A DNA stretch of 64,000 nucleotides from Candidatus Saccharimonadales bacterium (GTDB lineage Bacteria; Patescibacteriota; Saccharimonadia; Saccharimonadales; UBA4665): assembly GCA_050730855.1 (NCBI GenBank), contig JBOHNU010000002.1, positions 23,820-87,819 of the forward strand. The letters are read 5' to 3'. How positions within the stretch are numbered: the first letter of the stretch is position 1; every line of letters starts with the position of its first letter. The notes beneath the pieces were generated by a model, which was given only the letters and a program-made list of their open reading frames with translations, was not told where the DNA came from and did not search any database. Both the position numbers and the translations under genes were made by a program. This document shows, piece by piece, positions 18,082 to 53,173 of this stretch.

Positions 18082-19146
18082 ATGAAAACGCGAGTAGTAA
18101 TTAATGGATTTGGGCGTATCGGGCGTTCGGCGTTTAAGATTGCATTTGAGAGGAGCGACCTGGAAATCGTCGCCATCAACGACCTTGCCGATACTAAAAC
18201 TCTTGCGCATTTGCTCAAACACGACAGCAACTACGGCGTCTATAGCCAGGAAGTAAACTTTGACGAGCAAAACATTATTGTCGCCAGCCAGAAAATCCGC
18301 GTTTACGCCGAGAAAGACCCGGCCGCCCTGCCTTGGAAAGACCTGAGCGTCGATGTAGTCATAGAATCAACAGGTCTTTTTACCGATCCCGAAAAAGCCC
18401 AGGCGCACATTAACGCGGGGGCTAAGAAAGTGATCATCAGCGCGCCCGCCAAGGGCGACAGCGCCGACACAATCGTGCTGGGTGTAAACGAAGACAAACT
18501 TGAGACGGCGACTGATGTGATTAGCAACGCCAGCTGCACCACCAACTGCATTACGCCGGTGGCGGCAATCATTGAGGCCAACTTCGGTATAGAAAAAGCC
18601 ATGATGACCACCGTCCACAGCTACACCGCCAGCCAACGTTTGCAGGACGCTCCAGCTAAAGATCTGCGCGAGGCGAGGAGCGCAGCCGAGAACATCGTAC
18701 CCACCACCACCGGCGCCAGTATTGCCGCGGCCAGGGCAATGCCGTCGCTCAAAGACCGCTTCGGCGGCATGAGTATCCGCGTGCCGACCCCCGTGGTAAG
18801 CCTTAGCGACTTTGTTATAATCACCAAACGCAAGGTCACGGTCGAGGAAGTCAACGAGGCCTTTAAAAAAGCCGCCGCAGAGCCGTACTACCAGGGCATT
18901 CTAGCCGTCACCGAGGAAGAATTAGTAAGCAGCGACTTCATCGGTAACAGCCACTCCGCCATCGTCGATCTTAATTTAACAGCGGTCATCGACGGCAACA
19001 TGCTCAAGGTCGTCGCTTGGTACGACAACGAATGGGGATACAGTAACCGCCTGGTCGAAATTGTGGCCGACACAGGCGCAATTTTGCACAAGGGCGGCGA
19101 CAACACGCCGCAAATCCAGGAGGTGGCCGTAAACGGGCAGGTTTGA
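18082..19146 (+). CDS. gap: glyceraldehyde-3-phosphate dehydrogenase
   Basis: INGFGRIGR and SNASCTTNC active site. Start trimmed to ATG 18082, which follows GGAGG. Confidence 0.95.
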   Translation: MKTRVVINGFGRIGRSAFKIAFERSDLEIVAINDLADTKTLAHLLKHDSNYGVYSQEVNFDEQNIIVASQKIRVYAEKDPAALPWKDLSVDVVIESTGLFTDPEKAQAHINAGAKKVIISAPAKGDSADTIVLGVNEDKLETATDVISNASCTTNCITPVAAIIEANFGIEKAMMTTVHSYTASQRLQDAPAKDLREARSAAENIVPTTTGASIAAARAMPSLKDRFGGMSIRVPTPVVSLSDFVIITKRKVTVEEVNEAFKKAAAEPYYQGILAVTEEELVSSDFIGNSHSAIVDLNLTAVIDGNMLKVVAWYDNEWGYSNRLVEIVADTGAILHKGGDNTPQIQEVAVNGQV

Positions 19147-19147
19147 G

Positions 19148-19600
19148 ATGGGTTCTAAGATTTTTATCGGCGCTGACCACAACGGCTTTGACATGAAGGC
19201 TTTTATAGCCGAGGAGCTAGCCCGGCTCGGCTACGAAGTTACTGACGAAGGCGACCAAGCCCGCAACCCCGACGACGACTTTCCGCAGTTTTCCGAGCAA
19301 GTAGTTACCGGCATGAAGGCGACGGGCGACCAAGAGGCGCGCGGCATCCTTATCTGCGGCAGCGGCCAGGGAATGTGCATTGCCGCCAACCGCTTTAAGG
19401 GCATCCGCGCCGCGCTGGTGTGGAACGAGCACGAAGCCCGCGCCGCCCGCAACGACGACGACAGCAATATTTTGTGCCTACCCGCCCGCTCCATTAGCAA
19501 CAAACAAGCACTGGGTATCGCGCAAACTTGGCTGCGCACGCCATTTGCCGCCGCCCCGCGCTTTAAGCGACGTATAAAACAAATCGACGAATTGGGCTAG
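19148..19600 (+). CDS. rpiB: ribose-5-phosphate isomerase B
   Basis: IFIGADHNGF and ICGSGQGMCIAANR are the RpiB/LacAB signature. Confidence 0.9.
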   Translation: MGSKIFIGADHNGFDMKAFIAEELARLGYEVTDEGDQARNPDDDFPQFSEQVVTGMKATGDQEARGILICGSGQGMCIAANRFKGIRAALVWNEHEARAARNDDDSNILCLPARSISNKQALGIAQTWLRTPFAAAPRFKRRIKQIDELG

Positions 19601-40621: not shown

Positions 40622-40732
40622 GCCTGACCCCCCATACACTTTTTCCGGCACCTCGGAAGCGCCGAATGTGCTACACTTTGTAGCGCATTCGGTGACCCGC
40701 ACGTGTCCGGAAAAGTGCATGGGGGGTCAGGC
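40622..40732 (+). repeat. family-1 hairpin element, copy B (full form)
   Basis: Outer arms gcctgaccccccatacactttttccgg and ccggaaaagtgcatggggggtcaggc. Core GGCACCTCGG (40647-40656) and GACCCGCACGTGTCC (40694-40708). Apical 14-bp hairpin at 40662-40692. Starts 3 nt after the dnaE stop. Confidence 0.85.
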
Positions 40733-41748: not shown

Positions 41749-41771
41749 CTTGATTTTTACTATAGCACAAA

Positions 41772-41932
41772 GAACCCATCTCAAACCTCCCCGCCGCTAC
41801 AAAACTATCTGGCGGAACCAGCTGTCAGTTTTGTTCGTCGGCGTAACGATAGTTACGCCTTCTCACAAGAACTAACAACTGGCACTCACCGGATAATTTT
41901 TCGCTATGACGGGGGAGGTTTGAGATGGGTTC
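41772..41932 (-). repeat. family-2 element, copy D (161 nt, 21-nt terminal inverted repeats)
   Basis: gaacccatctcaaacctcccc (41772-41792) pairs perfectly with ggggaggtttgagatgggttc (41912-41932). The 25-nt core at 41866-41890 is the exact reverse complement of 51763-51787. 8-bp apical hairpin at 41840-41859. Confidence 0.85.
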
Positions 41933-41954
41933 GTAGTGCTTTTGCTAAATATCA

Positions 41955-42062
41955 GACCCGCCCCACATCAACTCCCCAGGACACGTGCGGGTCACAAAAT
42001 GTGTTCTTATATAACACATTTTGTGCTTCCGAGGTGCCTAGGGAGTTGATGTGGGGCGGGTC
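41955..42062 (-). repeat. family-1 hairpin element, copy C (full form, inverted orientation)
   Basis: Perfect 22-bp outer stem (41955-41976 against 42041-42062). On the plus strand the core reads GGACACGTGCGGGTC (41979-41993) and CCGAGGTGCC (42029-42038). Perfect 12-bp apical hairpin at 41994-42024. Confidence 0.85.
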
Positions 42063-42073
42063 GACACCAACTT

Positions 42074-42580
42074 TTACTGAGTGAACCGGCAGTGGTATAA
42101 GGCCATGGCGGCGGCCTGTACGACGTTGTATGATTCTTTCTTGCCGAACATGGGGATTTCTAGCGACAGGTCGCAGGCGGCCAGTACTTCCTGCTCAACG
42201 CCCTCAACTTCGCGCCCTACCAATATGACTATTTTTTGCGGCGGGTGGTAGGTTGGCAGTTCGCGCGAGGCATCGGTTTGTTCCAGCGCGGCAACCGCGT
42301 AGCCTTGCTTTTTAAGATGGGCAATAACCGGCAGAATGTTCTGGTGGTATTTCCAGTTTTGGCTTAACTCCGCGCCCAGCGCCGTTTTCTGGATGAGCGC
42401 GGCTACCTTGGCCGCCTCGTGCGGCAGGCGGCGGTCGTTGGCATGCTCGGGGTGCGGTGTGTAGCCGCCTAGAATCACTTTGTCTACGCCCAAGCCGTCG
42501 GCCGTGCGCAGCAGCGACCCGACATTATGTGCACTGCGTAGGTTGTGTGCTACTAGGATTATACTTCGCATCGGGCTCAT
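42074..42580 (-). CDS. SpoU/TrmH-family RNA 2-prime-O-methyltransferase
   Basis: NLRSAHNVGSLLRTADGLGV and the C-terminal knot motifs (ILVGREVEGV, IPMFGKKESYNV). Start taken at ATG 42580. Confidence 0.8.
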   Translation of the reverse strand: MSPMRSIILVAHNLRSAHNVGSLLRTADGLGVDKVILGGYTPHPEHANDRRLPHEAAKVAALIQKTALGAELSQNWKYHQNILPVIAHLKKQGYAVAALEQTDASRELPTYHPPQKIVILVGREVEGVEQEVLAACDLSLEIPMFGKKESYNVVQAAAMALYHCRFTQ

Positions 42581-42598
42581 GGTGTATAGTATAGAATC

Positions 42599-43471
42599 AT
42601 GAAACCGCATTTGCGAGTCCGGCGCAGGCAAAAGAAGTCAAAACGGTGGATATTGTTGGCAGTGCTTGCGGCGGCTCTACTATTTGGCGGGTGGTGGTTT
42701 ACACTTCGCGGGGATACGTCGCCGCCGGGCAACGGTTCAACAAACCAAACAAGCGAGCAGTCGTCCCAGGCCGAAACCTCAAAGCCGCCGCAGGTGGACT
42801 TGCAGCCGGTGGTCGACCAATGGGTGGCGCGTCAGTCGGCGGAATACGGCATAGTTGTGTACGACCCGGCCAACGTCCAGGTAATTGCCGCGCACAACCC
42901 CGACGAAAAATACTTTGCCGCCAGCTTGTACAAAATATTTGTGGCCTACCTGGCTCTGGTTGATTTTCAGAATGGCGCGCAGAACCCGGAAGAAATCCTC
43001 ACCGGCGGCTTTACCCGCAAACAATGCGTGGATAAAATGATCCGCGAGTCGCACAGCCCGTGTGGTGAGGCCATGATGGCCAGCATGGGGCAGGAGGCGC
43101 TCCGCAAACGTGTCGTTGACATGGGCATAAAAAACACTGTTTTCGCTGGCATCACAACGACCGCCCGCGACACGGCGCTAATTTTGCAGTACATCGTGGA
43201 AGGCCGCGACCTGACGCCCGAAAACACGGCGTTTCTTAGGGATGCCATGCGCGTGCAAGACCAAAAGTTCCGGAACGGCCTGGCCAAGGGCGCACCCGAG
43301 GCGACCTGGGAAACCAAAGTCGGCTGGAACGAGCAGCAAAACTACCACGATATCGGCATTATGACTTTGCCGGGCGGCCGGCAATACGTGGTGGCTATCC
43401 TGAGTAAAGGGCAAGGTAAAAGCGCGCCCATCGCCGACTTCGCCGCCACTACTTACGATGCGCTGGAATAA
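42599..43471 (+). CDS. serine hydrolase, class A beta-lactamase-like, membrane anchored
   Basis: FAASLYK (SxxK) and a later KVGW (KTG-like) motif. N-terminal TM helix. Confidence 0.6.
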   Translation: MKPHLRVRRRQKKSKRWILLAVLAAALLFGGWWFTLRGDTSPPGNGSTNQTSEQSSQAETSKPPQVDLQPVVDQWVARQSAEYGIVVYDPANVQVIAAHNPDEKYFAASLYKIFVAYLALVDFQNGAQNPEEILTGGFTRKQCVDKMIRESHSPCGEAMMASMGQEALRKRVVDMGIKNTVFAGITTTARDTALILQYIVEGRDLTPENTAFLRDAMRVQDQKFRNGLAKGAPEATWETKVGWNEQQNYHDIGIMTLPGGRQYVVAILSKGQGKSAPIADFAATTYDALE

Positions 43472-49162: not shown

Positions 49163-51727
49163 CTACAAGAAGTACTGCTTAACCGCGGCAACGTCGCGCT
49201 GCAGCCAAGCCACGCGGTTCTCGATTTCTTCTATACCCAGTGTGATGCTGCGCTGCAAGGCGGGCAGTTTTTTGAGCGGCTCGAAGAAGGTGCGGTATTC
49301 GTCTAGCAACTGAGCGGTGTTAAAGGCGTTCGCCACGTAGCGCGGGAAGTAGTCGAAGCTGTTGTCGCTTGCGAATGTTTTTTCTATCCAATCCCAATGC
49401 TCGCGCAGCCAATCCCACGCCAGTTGGCGTGTGTCGCGGTTGCGCAGCAGGTACGCCAGCCAGCGGTCGACGTCGTGCTGCCGAACTTTTTTACCATCCT
49501 TTAACCGGCCTAGCAAGGTTTTTGCCTGGGCTGGGTTTTTTGTGGCGGTCAGCGCGTCCATAATATCGAGCTTTAGCGCGGTGTCGGTGGTGTTTTCGTC
49601 CAGATCTAACAGGTAGTCAAATGCGCCGCTGGCTTGCTGGCGGACGGCGGCGCCCAAGATTACGCTGCGCAGTTCGGACGTTACGGCCGCCGAGTCTTTT
49701 TTGTACTCGGCGAATAACTTAAGCGCCTCGGCAACAATTGCCGGATGCTTAGCGTACACGCCAAGGCTGATAATTAGCGCGCGCAGCTTGGTGTCTTCCG
49801 ACGATTCGCCGGGCTTTTCGCGCCAGCCCAGCCGCTTGTGCTGCGCGCCGACAAGCTGCCGCACAAAGGCGCGCATCGGCTCCTCCAGACTAGGGTCGAC
49901 ATCTATAAAGCGACGCAAGTCCGACAGCGTGAGCGCAATTATGTTCCACACCGGCTCTTCGTCTTCTTGCTTGTAGTGGTCGAGCAATTGCAGCGTCGCA
50001 CTGGTGGTTTGCTTGCCGGCGCGGGCAAGCATGGCGCTGTCGTTTAGCAGCGCCAGCCGTTCGGCCGGGTTCAGCCGTTTTTGAGCCGCTTGCTGGGCGA
50101 TTGCCTCGGCGTGCTCCGGGTTTACATAATGCACCAGGTAGTGGCCGGTCGCGCCCTGGTTGAGCCGCACCCAGCGGCTGTCGGGCAGCTCGGTCTGAAA
50201 GTGGTCTGCCTCAAGCAGCGCCGGGACACTCAGCGAATCCGCCAAAAGCGGCACCGGCCAGCGGCGTTCGGGGTCGGCCTTGGCTGGATCCATTAAAAAG
50301 TGAGTTTGCGCGATCGACAGTGACTGGCCATTCTGAGTAACTTCGATAACCGGGTAGCCGCTGCGCTCCAGCCAGGGCGTCATGATGTGGGCCACATCAC
50401 TGCCGTTGCTGAGTGCTTGCCACAAGTCGTCGCCGGTGGTGTTACCGTAGGCGTGTTTATCGAAGTACCTTTTTAGGCCTTTGCGGAACTCCTCTTGGCC
50501 CAGGTGCTGCACCAGCATATTGATCAGCCGGCCGCCCTTGGCGTATACAATGGATGGGTCGAAGATGCTGCCGATTTCGGCCGGATGGCGCACATCGGTT
50601 TTGATCGCCTGGACGCCGGCAATGCTGTCGCGCCGCAGCGCGGCCAATCCATCGGCGGCGATGTAGGTGTTCCAGATGCGCCAGTGCGGATACAGCGCGT
50701 CCTCTGCCACAAAGGCCATGACGTTGGCAAAACTTTCGTTTAGCCACAAGTCGTCCCACCAGCGCATGGTAACCAAATTGCCGAACCACTGGTGCGACAG
50801 TTCGTGCAGGATAACTTCGGCCGTGATTTCTTTGCCGCCTTGGGTCGCGGTGTCCGGGTCTGCCAGAAATACAGCCTCGCGGTAGGTAATGAGTCCCCAG
50901 TTTTCCATGGCGCCCGATGAAAAATCCGGTATGGCCACGTGGTCGCACTTGGGCAGCGGATAAGGAGTGTCGAAGTATTCCTCAAAAAAGTCCAGGCCGC
51001 GGGCGGCCACCTCCAGTGCGAAGTCCAGTGCCTCGGGGCGGTGTGCCTTGGTCGCCCACACTCTAACGTCTACGCCGTTCTTTGATTTCGTCTCCTTGCT
51101 TTGCAAATCGCCAAACACAAACGCCAGCAGGTAGGTCGGCATCCGCGGGGTTGTTTCGAAGAGCGTATGCAGTTTATCGCCCTTTGTAGTTTGGGTTTTT
51201 GGGGGCATGTTGCCTATAACCGCCTGGCTGGCGGGCGAGATAAGGCTGAGTGCGAACGTGGCTTTGGCTTCCGGTTCGTCGATACAAGGAAAGGCCTGGC
51301 GGGCAAAATGGCTTTCGAACTGCGTGGAGACTACCCGCTTTTGCTCGCCGCCGGCGGTGTAGTCCGAGTAATACGCACCCTGCATGCCGGCGCTGATTTT
51401 GCTGGCAAACTCCATTTCTACGGTGTAGCTCCCGGGGTACAGCATTTGCGCGGTGTGCAGGCGCAGCTCGTGCAGCGTGCGGTGGTGGTTAATGCGCGAA
51501 ACGGTTATCTCTTGGTCGCCCTTTTTGTCGTGGCGGGTAATTTTGGCGCCCAGCACCTTAACGCCGTTCTGGTGGAAGGTTAGCCGCTGCGACGGCCTCC
51601 CGGTCTTTTGGCCGGAAACTACAACCGTTCCGGTGATCTCGAGGGTTTCGGGGTTTGGCTCCAGGGATAGCTCGTAATGCTTGGGCGCAAAGCTGGCAAA
51701 AAGTCGGCGTACACGTTTAGAACCCAC
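49163..51727 (-). CDS. pepN: aminopeptidase N (M1 family)
   Basis: GAMENWG exopeptidase motif and HELSHQWFGNLVTMRWWDDLWLNESFA (HExxH-18-E). The GTG start at 51727-51725 and its GGAG lie inside the terminal repeat of element E. Confidence 0.9.
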   Translation of the reverse strand: MGSKRVRRLFASFAPKHYELSLEPNPETLEITGTVVVSGQKTGRPSQRLTFHQNGVKVLGAKITRHDKKGDQEITVSRINHHRTLHELRLHTAQMLYPGSYTVEMEFASKISAGMQGAYYSDYTAGGEQKRVVSTQFESHFARQAFPCIDEPEAKATFALSLISPASQAVIGNMPPKTQTTKGDKLHTLFETTPRMPTYLLAFVFGDLQSKETKSKNGVDVRVWATKAHRPEALDFALEVAARGLDFFEEYFDTPYPLPKCDHVAIPDFSSGAMENWGLITYREAVFLADPDTATQGGKEITAEVILHELSHQWFGNLVTMRWWDDLWLNESFANVMAFVAEDALYPHWRIWNTYIAADGLAALRRDSIAGVQAIKTDVRHPAEIGSIFDPSIVYAKGGRLINMLVQHLGQEEFRKGLKRYFDKHAYGNTTGDDLWQALSNGSDVAHIMTPWLERSGYPVIEVTQNGQSLSIAQTHFLMDPAKADPERRWPVPLLADSLSVPALLEADHFQTELPDSRWVRLNQGATGHYLVHYVNPEHAEAIAQQAAQKRLNPAERLALLNDSAMLARAGKQTTSATLQLLDHYKQEDEEPVWNIIALTLSDLRRFIDVDPSLEEPMRAFVRQLVGAQHKRLGWREKPGESSEDTKLRALIISLGVYAKHPAIVAEALKLFAEYKKDSAAVTSELRSVILGAAVRQQASGAFDYLLDLDENTTDTALKLDIMDALTATKNPAQAKTLLGRLKDGKKVRQHDVDRWLAYLLRNRDTRQLAWDWLREHWDWIEKTFASDNSFDYFPRYVANAFNTAQLLDEYRTFFEPLKKLPALQRSITLGIEEIENRVAWLQRDVAAVKQYFL

Positions 51728-51882
51728 TTCAAATCTCCACTCTGTTAAGAGAAGGCCATGCAGGTGAGTGCCAGTTGTTAGTTCTTGGGAGGAAGTGTAT
51801 CTGTAGATACACTGAAGAGCAAAACTGGCAACTGGTGCAGCCAGAATGGTCTGAGGCTGGAGGGGAGGTTTGAGGTGGGTTC
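51720..51882 (+). repeat. family-2 element, copy E (163 nt)
   Basis: Terminal repeats gaacccacttcaaatctccac and gggaggtttgaggtgggttc. 25-nt core ggtgagtgccagttgttagttcttg at 51763-51787. 8-bp apical hairpin agtgtatc/gatacact at 51794-51813. Confidence 0.85.
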
Positions 51883-51909
51883 TTACTCATCTGACAATTC
51901 TACACGTTG

Positions 51910-51938
51910 TTGACCATGTACGTCCACCCTGCTACAAT
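51910..51938 (+). promoter_or_regulatory. sigma70-like promoter candidate for nusA
   Basis: TTGACC (51910-51915), 17-nt spacer, TACAAT (51933-51938). Confidence 0.4.
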
Positions 51939-52000: not shown

Positions 52001-53173
52001 ATGGAAATGGATTTTAAGCAACTGGCCGCCGCCATAAAGGCGCTAGCCGAAGAGAAAAACTTACCCGAAGATAAAGTGCAAGAAGTTGTGGAGCAGGCGC
52101 TGGCCGCCGCCTATCGCCGCGACTACGGCGAGCGCGAGCAGGAAGTGCGGGTAACTATGAACCTCAACACCGGAGACGTCGACGCCTACGCAAGCAAAGA
52201 GGTAGTCGAGACGGTCGGCAACCCCGCCTACGAAATGAGCTTGCAAGAGGCGCAAGTGATGCAAAAGAACGCCAAAATCGGCGACATGGTGGAGGTACAC
52301 GAGAAGGTCAACGACTTCGGCCGCGTAGCCGCTCAAACCGCCAAGCAAGTTATTTTGCAGCGCTTGCGCGAAGCCGAGCGCGAGGTGGTTATGGAGGAGT
52401 TTGAAGACAAGATCGGCACCGTAATTAACGCCATTGTGTCGCGCGTGGAAGGCAATATCGCGCGTGTCGATCTCGGCCGCGCCCAAGGCATTATGCCGCG
52501 CAGCGAGCAAATCCAGGGCGAACGCTATTACCCCGGCCAGCGCCTCAAAGTCTACCTAAAAGACGTGGAGCGCGGCCAGCGCGGCCCGCAGCTGATTGTT
52601 TCGCGTGGCTGCTCCGAGTTTGTAGAGTGGTTGTTCCGCGCCGAAGTGCCGGAGATGGAAAACGGCGCAGTCCAAATTAAAGGCATTGCCCGCGAAGGCG
52701 GCGTGCGCACCAAACTGGCGGTGATCAGCACCGTGCCCGGCGTTGACCCAGTCGGCACCTTTGTAGGTGGCCACGGCACACGCGTAAACGCCGTTGTCAG
52801 CGAGATTGGCGAGCAAGAAAAAATCGACATCACCGTTTTCAGCGACGACCCAGCAACCTACATTGTTAACGCGCTTAGCCCCACCAACGTCAGCAAAGTG
52901 ATTATCGAAAAAGACTCCAAAAGAGCCAAGGTGTTAGTTCCGGAAGATCAGCTAAGCATCGCCATCGGCCGCGGCGGCCAAAACGTCCGTCTGGCCAGCA
53001 AGCTTACCGGATACGAGCTAGACATCGAGTCCGACAAAGCGCCCGAGGCCAAGCCAGCACCGCAAACCGAGCAAAAAGAAACCCCGGCCGCCAAGCCAGT
53101 GGCGCCAAAGCTCAAGAAGAAGAGCGAATTGGAAAACAGCCTGCTAGAAGCCATAGAAAAACACGGCGAGTAG
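52001..53173 (+). CDS. nusA: transcription termination/antitermination factor NusA
   Basis: N-terminal domain, S1 domain (GTVINAIVSRVEGNIARVDLG) and two KH domains (IAIGRGGQNVRLASKLTG). Confidence 0.9.
   Translation: MEMDFKQLAAAIKALAEEKNLPEDKVQEVVEQALAAAYRRDYGEREQEVRVTMNLNTGDVDAYASKEVVETVGNPAYEMSLQEAQVMQKNAKIGDMVEVHEKVNDFGRVAAQTAKQVILQRLREAEREVVMEEFEDKIGTVINAIVSRVEGNIARVDLGRAQGIMPRSEQIQGERYYPGQRLKVYLKDVERGQRGPQLIVSRGCSEFVEWLFRAEVPEMENGAVQIKGIAREGGVRTKLAVISTVPGVDPVGTFVGGHGTRVNAVVSEIGEQEKIDITVFSDDPATYIVNALSPTNVSKVIIEKDSKRAKVLVPEDQLSIAIGRGGQNVRLASKLTGYELDIESDKAPEAKPAPQTEQKETPAAKPVAPKLKKKSELENSLLEAIEKHGE

Follow-up and report, generated by a model that had tools for sequence, protein, structure and literature searches.

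The stretch of DNA analysed here (the window: 64,000 nt of contig JBOHNU010000002.1, from a Candidatus Saccharimonadales bacterium) carries two palindromic sequences of about 160 nt, named D and E, which are very probably copies of a non-autonomous MITE (miniature inverted-repeat transposable element) of Candidatus Saccharimonadales genomes. To judge from their sequence, the terminal inverted repeats (TIRs) of this MITE probably serve as outward-facing restart cassettes for translation, which would enable the element to land on gene starts apparently without destroying the genes. The mobility of the element, its target duplication, its filled and empty sites, the frame arithmetic of its insertions, their in-frame fusions and the covariation of its hairpin are all established by comparison. 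The parts of the two copies in the window are the following.

41772-41932, sense strand minus: copy D, 161 nt, within the spacer between a SpoU-methylase gene and a CAP-domain gene
41772-41792, minus: left TIR of D, read outward GGGGAGGTTTGAGATGGGTTC, with a Shine-Dalgarno (SD) sequence, TGA, one base and ATG
41912-41932, plus: right TIR of D, which opens only the mini open reading frame (ORF) ATG GGT TCG TAG
41866-41890, minus: core of D, the 25-nt sequence GGTGAGTGCCAGTTGTTAGTTCTTG
41840-41859, minus: apical hairpin of D, GGCGTAAC-tatc-GTTACGCC, 8-bp stem and 4-nt loop
51720-51882, sense strand plus: copy E, 163 nt, located within codons 2-3 of pepN and flanked by two divergent genes, pepN and nusA
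51720-51740, minus: left TIR of E, read outward GTGGAGATTTGAAGTGGGTTC, with SD GGAG at 51738-51735, TGA at 51731-51729 and GTG at 51727-51725
51862-51882, plus: right TIR of E, GGGGAGGTTTGAGGTGGGTTC, which toward nusA opens only a 12-codon ORF
51763-51787, plus: core of E, the same 25-nt GGTGAGTGCCAGTTGTTAGTTCTTG
51794-51813, plus: apical hairpin of E, AGTGTATC-tgta-GATACACT, 8-bp stem and 4-nt loop
51717-51719: left copy of the E target-site duplication, TTA (TAA on the pepN strand)
51883-51885: right copy of the E target-site duplication, TTA

Copies of the element and their empty sites

The statements of the first-pass annotation on the sequence of D and E (TIRs, 25-nt core, second block, apical hairpins and long fold) all held when rechecked. 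The TIRs of D are perfect 21-nt inverted repeats (gaacccatctcaaacctcccc and ggggaggtttgagatgggttc), and those of E comprise 18 Watson-Crick pairs, the two G-T pairs on the plus strand already noted in its outer stem, and additionally one mismatch. D and E are identical at 17 of 21 positions in their TIRs and again at 17 of 21 in the second block. The core occurs exactly twice in the window, on opposite strands, where shuffled sequences give none, and the interiors, being opposite-strand copies, are 75% complementary over 102 nt. A sigma-54-like motif, TGGCAC-N5-TGCA, noticed by eye on the antisense strand of the E core, is lacking in D and in the family consensus and was discarded for that reason. 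The apical hairpins differ in sequence and are perfectly paired in both copies. Since the flanks of D and E are unrelated, a segmental duplication is rejected. A search of the window with the TIR pattern (at most three mismatches) returned the four ends of D and E and one additional site, 19135-19155, and nhmmer with the family profile found no full copy in the window beyond D and E.

Both insertion sites are empty in relatives. Two syntenic contigs (L002 and L003), with pepN 74-75% identical to that of the window, have no element in the nusA-pepN spacer, which measures 111 nt and 152 nt, respectively, against 273 nt in the window. Their spacer sequence (...TAGAATgatctgATGAGTAAACG...) matches that of the window minus E and one TAA. 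Read along the pepN strand, the relatives have ...GTGTAGAATgatctgATGAGTAAACGC... where the window has ...GTGTAGAATtgtcagATGAGTAA[E]TAAACGTG..., such that the ancestral ATGAGTAAACG has become ATGAG-TAA-[E]-TAA-ACG. This comparison indicates that E inserted into codons 2-3 of pepN, with duplication of its target TAA (plus strand, TTA), so the TTA that had been seen on both sides of E is indeed a target duplication.

For D, the spacer between the SpoU-type methylase gene (42074-42631, minus strand) and the CAP-domain gene (minus strand) is only 24 nt long in L002 as opposed to about 328 nt in the window, which indicates that D and the adjoining palindrome of a second family ("family 1") are insertions. 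No target duplication remains around D. Its flanks (41755-41771 and 41933-41949) are partly inverted-complementary (38-nt arms, 84%), and the empty site in L002 (20450-20470) contains a small palindrome, TAGCA-atg-TGCTA, so that D seemingly landed in the loop of a pre-existing hairpin. The two copies do lie in opposite orientations, as the first-pass annotation stated, although it missed the divergent pepN/nusA setting of E.

Further copies were sought in two collections. A single-TIR exact-pattern scan of GTDB representatives gave eight matches, seven of them due to chance (L005-L011) and one a true copy (L004) in another Saccharibacteria metagenome-assembled genome (MAG). A two-anchor pattern scan of JGI metagenomes gave 21 loci, on which a looser TIR scan and nhmmer were then run. 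About 26 distinct further copies were obtained, on 17 other contigs, in both orientations and in unrelated contexts. They are 88-225 nt long, mostly 160-166 nt, with a density of up to 3 per 8-14 kb, and one of the contigs bearing them encodes an XthA protein that groups with Saccharimonadales. The target-duplication analysis, now extended to these copies, found perfect 3-bp direct repeats flanking 11 of the 26, where chance (0.0185 per copy) would give about 0.5; the triplets are TTA (five copies), TAA (two), ATA (two), GAC (one) and GGC (one). An exact 20-mer from the core had no match in the GTDB representative genomes, a collection outside which the window's own genome lies; the core is conserved too poorly across species for such a scan. 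In viral contigs the TIR scan returned three lone matches in coding regions, none with a partner TIR, which is the level expected by chance.

The family has the traits by which a MITE is defined, namely TIRs, a target duplication, a small size without a transposase gene, and dispersed copies with filled and empty sites; its internal frames are only leaders of 50-57 codons composed of TIR and hairpin sequence. The proposal of a mobile MITE-like element is therefore borne out by the empty sites at both loci, the TTA around E, the additional copies and the excess of 3-bp repeats. Given how many copies there are, that their flanks are unrelated and that no described family matched, neither of the outcomes that would have spoken for something else (only two copies arisen by segmental duplication, or a known family) was found. 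The TIRs had not been recognised as those of a known insertion sequence (IS) family, and no described family in Rfam or in the searched literature matched them.

The copies vary in size and form. Deletion forms of 88 nt (L020 10716-10803) and 139 nt (L020 8802-8940), a longer form of 225 nt carrying about 58 nt of inserted sequence (L019 7865-8089) and a fragment without TIRs (L012 2367-2503) were found. A distant subfamily of 151-153 nt (L017 5316-5468, L025 928-1078 and L030 5481-5632) resides on contigs of lower GC content (0.40-0.45), and its palindrome extends at least 12 nt into the flanks. One class of flanks, TAT-[element]-AAT, recurs in independent loci (L019 7100-7260, L021 11362-11524 and L032 3709-3869, also L029 and L024a). 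Two of its three positions match, with always T at -1 and A at +1, and the native ATG directly follows the Met-Gly-Ser codons of the TIR. An IS1595-like gene in L021 (5783-6679, plus strand; 298 amino acids, zinc ribbon and DDE recognised by eye) has no family TIR nearby and is probably not the mobiliser.

The palindromes of family 1 measure 76-111 nt and lie each just past a gene end (1760-1835, 40622-40732 and 41955-42062); the one adjoining D is absent from L002. In the same sample, Logan contigs terminate within a family-1 copy (at about 1765) and within E (51844), which indicates that assemblies break at both repeat families.

Terminal repeats as putative start cassettes

Read outward, the TIRs have the consensus GGAG-R-TTTG-RRR-TG-GGTTC, which amounts to an SD, 7 nt and an ATG or GTG (GGAG being absent in the distant subfamily of L017, L025 and L030), and the element ends, with a TIR of roughly 21 nt, read GAACCCAYYTCAAAYCTCC... 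At about two thirds of the ends a TGA stands one base before the TIR start codon. The motif RTGGGTTC is present at every end examined, including those at which the scan pattern forced neither R nor GGAG; the metagenome pattern forced RTGGGTTC at one end only and GGAG never. With the two ends in inverted arrangement, each directs its cassette outward, so either orientation should work. The TIRs thus have the make-up of translation-initiation modules, a feature that the first-pass annotation missed.

The consequences can be followed at pepN, where E sits at the gene start.

49163-51727, minus: pepN (M1 aminopeptidase, 854 amino acids), starting MGSKRVRRLF from the TIR GTG
52001-53173, plus: nusA, divergent from pepN, with E between them
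51729-51890, minus: leader ORF, 53 codons, from the ancestral pepN ATG (51890) through all of E to the TIR TGA (51731-51729)
51897-51926, minus: promoter-like site TGGACG-18-TAGAAT, a consensus match only

Past the upstream stop codon, the earliest start codon is the TIR GTG at 51727, and there is no alternative start codon in pepN ahead of the conserved residues. Among 120 PepN homologues, 57 begin MSK, including the five closest ones (P0002-P0006), so that the window has MGSKRV where its relatives have MSKRV. The PepN protein of the window is 100% identical to one encoded on a 136-kb contig of a Candidatus Saccharimonadales MAG. Since no other start is available and the gene is intact over 854 amino acids, a functional pepN requires initiation at the TIR GTG; we are fairly confident that this codon is used. 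The stop codon of the leader ORF, TGA, lies one base ahead of this new GTG. The -10 hexamer TAGAAT of the promoter-like site ends 6 nt before the ancestral pepN ATG and is conserved in L002 and L003. No SD precedes that ATG (51886-51926, minus strand) in the window, L002 or L003, which suggests that the pepN transcript may be leaderless or nearly so. The contrast drawn by the first-pass annotation, a MITE rather than a leader RNA, was right about mobility and too sharp otherwise, as E now forms the 5' leader of pepN and would supply its ribosome-binding site and start codon. One PepN homologue beginning MGSMS (P0014) was considered as a further TIR case and rejected, its DNA (ATGGGCAGT) containing no TIR.

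Insertions of the same kind were found at other genes. In five copies the TIR start is in frame with an N-terminus confirmed by Pfam:

L004: GT2 glycosyltransferase, in-frame TIR fusion
L021: NUDIX protein, VGS-MKDM...
L032: P-loop kinase, VGS-MGMIVGITGAIGSGK...
L027: release factor 1 (prfA), VGS-MEQKE...
L029: ClpB-like protein, in-frame TIR fusion

A sixth fused ORF (L026) has no Pfam match; taking the element out brings the native SD and ATG of this ORF into frame with it. In all seven gene-proximal cases (these six and pepN) the frame starting from base 2 of the element is open, giving a leader of 50-57 codons, and a native ATG located 2, 8 or 14 nt before the element opens that leader. 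In six of the seven the leader ends at a TGA one base before the TIR start. The arithmetic of such an insertion is restrictive: the restart falls in frame only with the first base of the duplicated triplet at codon position 3, the leader then entering the element at base 2, and the leader meets the TIR TGA only if the length of the element is 1 modulo 3. All seven gene-start insertions have the permissive phase, where one in three would be expected for each, and 14 of the 26 copies have a length of 1 modulo 3. Across the family the base-2 frame is open in 24 of 52 readings; the two alternative frames are open in 10 and 14, and with shuffled interiors the rate is about 15%. These counts are inflated by shared descent, though the gene-proximal cases come from different loci and subfamilies.

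The element shows no fixed orientation relative to the fused gene: five cases are antisense and two sense, and the unfused D is sense. Many copies are located at gene ends, where the duplicated TAA can be the stop codon of the neighbour (L014a and L024b). In the first place the element is a transposon targeting A/T-rich triplets; its cassette would come into play when it lands at a start.

The additional TIR match in the window points to a possible later fate of such insertions.

19135-19155, plus: solo TIR-like sequence GGGCAGGTTTGAGATGGGTTC, at the gap/rpiB junction

Its TGA (19144-19146) is the stop codon of gap and its ATG (19148-19150) the start codon of rpiB, giving a protein that begins MGSKIFIGADH. 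Only one of 120 RpiB homologues, that of the window itself, starts with MGSK, the others having MKIF, MKIY and similar starts. At the same junction two relatives (L033 and L035) read ...AACGGGTAGgtggcgGTGAAAGTT... without a TIR motif. The ancestral GGGTAGGT resembles the inner TIR sequence GGGGAGGT, which makes a microhomology-mediated deletion of an inserted copy a plausible origin of the solo TIR.

These observations can be accommodated in the following mechanism. The element would land at a start codon or directly behind it, its duplicated triplet starting at codon position 3, and the native start codon would then translate a leader of about 50-57 codons in the frame entering at base 2. Translation of the leader would open up the hairpin in which the distal TIR otherwise lies buried and, in copies with a length of 1 modulo 3, would terminate at the TIR TGA. 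The ribosome would re-initiate one base further on, at the TIR start, and Met-Gly-Ser would replace the first residues of the gene. The mobilising enzyme would be a DDE transposase of an IS5-like family with 3-bp duplications. We lean slightly towards this mechanism of leader translation followed by termination and re-initiation. A more far-reaching proposal, that the TIRs evolved as bidirectional restart cassettes together with a stop-free leader and the 1-modulo-3 length, thereby colonising first codons with expression preserved, and that a solo TIR was domesticated as an operon coupling junction, seems to us evenly poised between acceptance and rejection.

Hairpin covariation and rival explanations

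D and E each fold into one long hairpin, far more stable than shuffled sequences (z = -7 to -14). An alignment of 16 orientable copies (D and E, and copies from L004, L012, L014, L019-L021, L024, L026, L029 and L032) was analysed with RNAalifold, which returned the full-length hairpin with changes on both sides in 30 of 46 pairs; none of 500 shuffles reached the observed level of covariation. In this alignment the fraction of paired cells is 91.5%, compared with 80% for shuffles and 34-52% after sliding of the partners. The apical hairpin follows the pattern NNRTANN-YNTA-NNTAYNN with freely compensated stem positions, and positions 8-10 of the TIR covary between the two ends of one copy. The selection on hairpin structure suggested from D and E alone is thus supported across the family. 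The strand homologous to E on the plus strand, which is G-rich, gives the more stable fold in 16 of 16 copies and contains 72 G-T against 15 A-C cells, a count that is biased since the structure was derived on that strand.

Several points weigh against the cassette interpretation or narrow the evidence for it. The metagenome pattern fixed one TIR and a length of about 146-176 nt, so that the retrieval of copies was biased, and the copies share descent, so that the counts of paired cells and open frames are not independent. Neither the 64-kb window nor about 0.4 Mb of fetched loci nor limited exact-pattern scans yielded an autonomous IS whose ends match, and the window and the fetched loci contained no pair of TIRs at long range. 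The covariation between the two TIRs and the strand asymmetry of the fold are left unexplained by a transposon model, the latter because the orientation relative to neighbouring genes is mixed. About a third of the TIRs have TTTGG instead of TTTGA and thus lack the stop codon. Copies of the L013 group sit 13 nt upstream of a Na/H-exchanger gene that is not in frame with their TIR start. For D, the ATG of the left TIR (41779-41777) is likewise not in the frame of the CAP gene, which probably starts at an ATG about 26 nt further downstream. With D and the L013 group thus placed 13-26 nt upstream of gene starts and out of frame, the cassette is not always productive. Finally, GGAG and ATG could originate as transposase-binding sequence and be useful only secondarily.

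This last point leads to the most serious alternative, namely that the element is an ordinary MITE, with its TIR dictated by transposase binding, its GGAG...ATG incidental, its fusions the result of survivorship or gene-calling artefacts, and no role for the leader and the TGA. The outermost 16 nt (GAACCCATTTCAAATC) are kept even in the distant low-GC subfamily (L017, L025 and L030), which has no GGAG, and this agrees with such a view, as do the non-productive cassettes, the TIRs without TGA and one apparent fusion (L019a, 170 amino acids) that turned out to be the antisense of a real DUF1003 gene. It does not account, however, for pepN, intact over 854 amino acids with no other start to use, for the seven of seven gene-start insertions in the sole permissive phase with a leader open each time against some 15% expected, or for a solo TIR kept exactly where it supplies a stop and a start. 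Survivorship of in-frame copies would by itself imply that the cassette is used. We therefore regard an ordinary MITE as unlikely.

A single-stranded intermediate would be in keeping with the asymmetric fold and with G-T cells outnumbering A-C cells, and the covariation of the two ends looks as if pairing itself mattered, as for a REP-like palindrome moved as single-stranded DNA by a Y1/HUH transposase (a REPtron or an IS200/IS605-like element). Transposons of this type are not known to make target duplications or to have TIRs. The present element duplicates 3 bp, as comparison with an empty site demonstrates, and is best conserved in its TIRs. Near the copies no gene for a Y1 transposase was noticed, although no systematic search for one was made. 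This route of transposition is very improbable. Scarcely credible, lastly, is an immobile, vertically inherited structured RNA of the host (a cis-acting leader or a small RNA gene): it would agree with a long, stable, covarying hairpin, with the better folding of one strand in all 16 copies (typical of selection on a transcript) and with the presence of several copies in 5' regions, but not with empty D and E sites in syntenic relatives, 3-bp flanking duplications, copies beside unrelated genes at both ends and starts and in both orientations, up to three copies per 8-14 kb, or the outcome of the Rfam search, which gave no match in the window at the gathering score and, at E<=1, only weak generic-hairpin matches far below it.

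Implications and comparison with known repeats

Genomes of Saccharibacteria and of the candidate phyla radiation (CPR) at large are about 1 Mb in size and have almost no spare intergenic space. If the restart cassette is real, the MITE could colonise first codons in these very compact genomes, including those of essential genes (prfA) and, in the window, of pepN. This bears on the persistence of mobile DNA in compact CPR genomes, as an element with its own ribosome-binding site, stop and start at both ends could enter the 5' ends of genes without inactivating them, and would explain densities of up to three copies per 8-14 kb. Transposon ends would have been recruited as a gene start (pepN) and as an operon junction (gap/rpiB). 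In annotations of MAGs, N-termini of the type "MGS..." and hypothetical ORFs of about 50 codons could be flagged as derived from the element, and assembly breaks at its repeats would be explained. The cassette is also a candidate for a natural, compact, orientation-independent module for translational coupling in synthetic use. No work connecting MITEs with Saccharibacteria was found in the searched literature.

The first-pass annotation had likened the element to the Correia elements of Neisseria. Correia repeat-enclosed elements (CREE, NEMIS) are non-autonomous and about 100-160 bp long, with TIRs of more than 20 bp and a long hairpin in the transcript, and are inserted beside or into genes in both orientations, where they provide outward-acting expression signals (Delihas 2011, PMC3184786). 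The Saccharimonadales element resembles them in layout and size, in its occurrence in both orientations and in having outward signals, and to this extent the comparison stands. Correia elements are not known outside Neisseria, duplicate TA and have different TIRs, of a characteristic 26-bp sequence, as well as promoters and an IHF site. The Saccharimonadales element instead duplicates 3 bp, which excludes membership in the Correia group, and its putative outward signals are translational (SD, stop and start).

A 3-bp TWA duplication and short TIRs are characteristic of IS5/PIF-Harbinger elements and Tourist-like MITEs. The duplications are TTA or TAA in 7 of the 11 perfect cases, in likeness to this group, and the other four (ATA, GAC and GGC) are not TWA. 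No parent having been found in the sequences searched, an IS5-like parent is no more than a lead.

Rickettsia palindromic elements undergo in-frame read-through and end up within the protein. In the Saccharimonadales element translation would instead stop and restart, adding only Met-Gly-Ser. Together with ERIC/IRU sequences, the Rickettsia elements belong to the palindromic repeats that survive in or beside coding regions and are co-transcribed (PMC3184786), and ERIC shares a MITE layout with the element described here. The REP2 repeats of Neisseria and the IR-A/IR-B repeats of Borrelia carry a ribosome-binding site as well as an ATG (PMC3184786). Those repeats differ in being without TIRs, in having a promoter and in acting in one direction, and insertion inside a coding sequence is not shown for them.

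MIRUs (mycobacterial interspersed repetitive units) are described as repeats of apparent mobility whose insertion at start codons leaves an ORF within the repeat translationally coupled, through a -4 overlap, to the host gene, which keeps the impact on expression minimal (review PMC12548453, citing Supply et al. 1997). They are 40-100 bp long, and TIRs are not reported for them (PMC3184786). By analogy, MIRU appears to be the closest functional counterpart of the Saccharimonadales element. MIRUs are often tandemly arrayed and have one working orientation. The Saccharimonadales element is about 160 nt long, carries the putative cassette in both TIRs, would couple through TGA-N-ATG (+1) and belongs to another phylum, so that only the coupling logic is common to both. 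What is new in the present element is the combination of a candidate cassette in both TIRs of a hairpin MITE, usable in either orientation, with stop and restart in place of read-through, in a CPR host.

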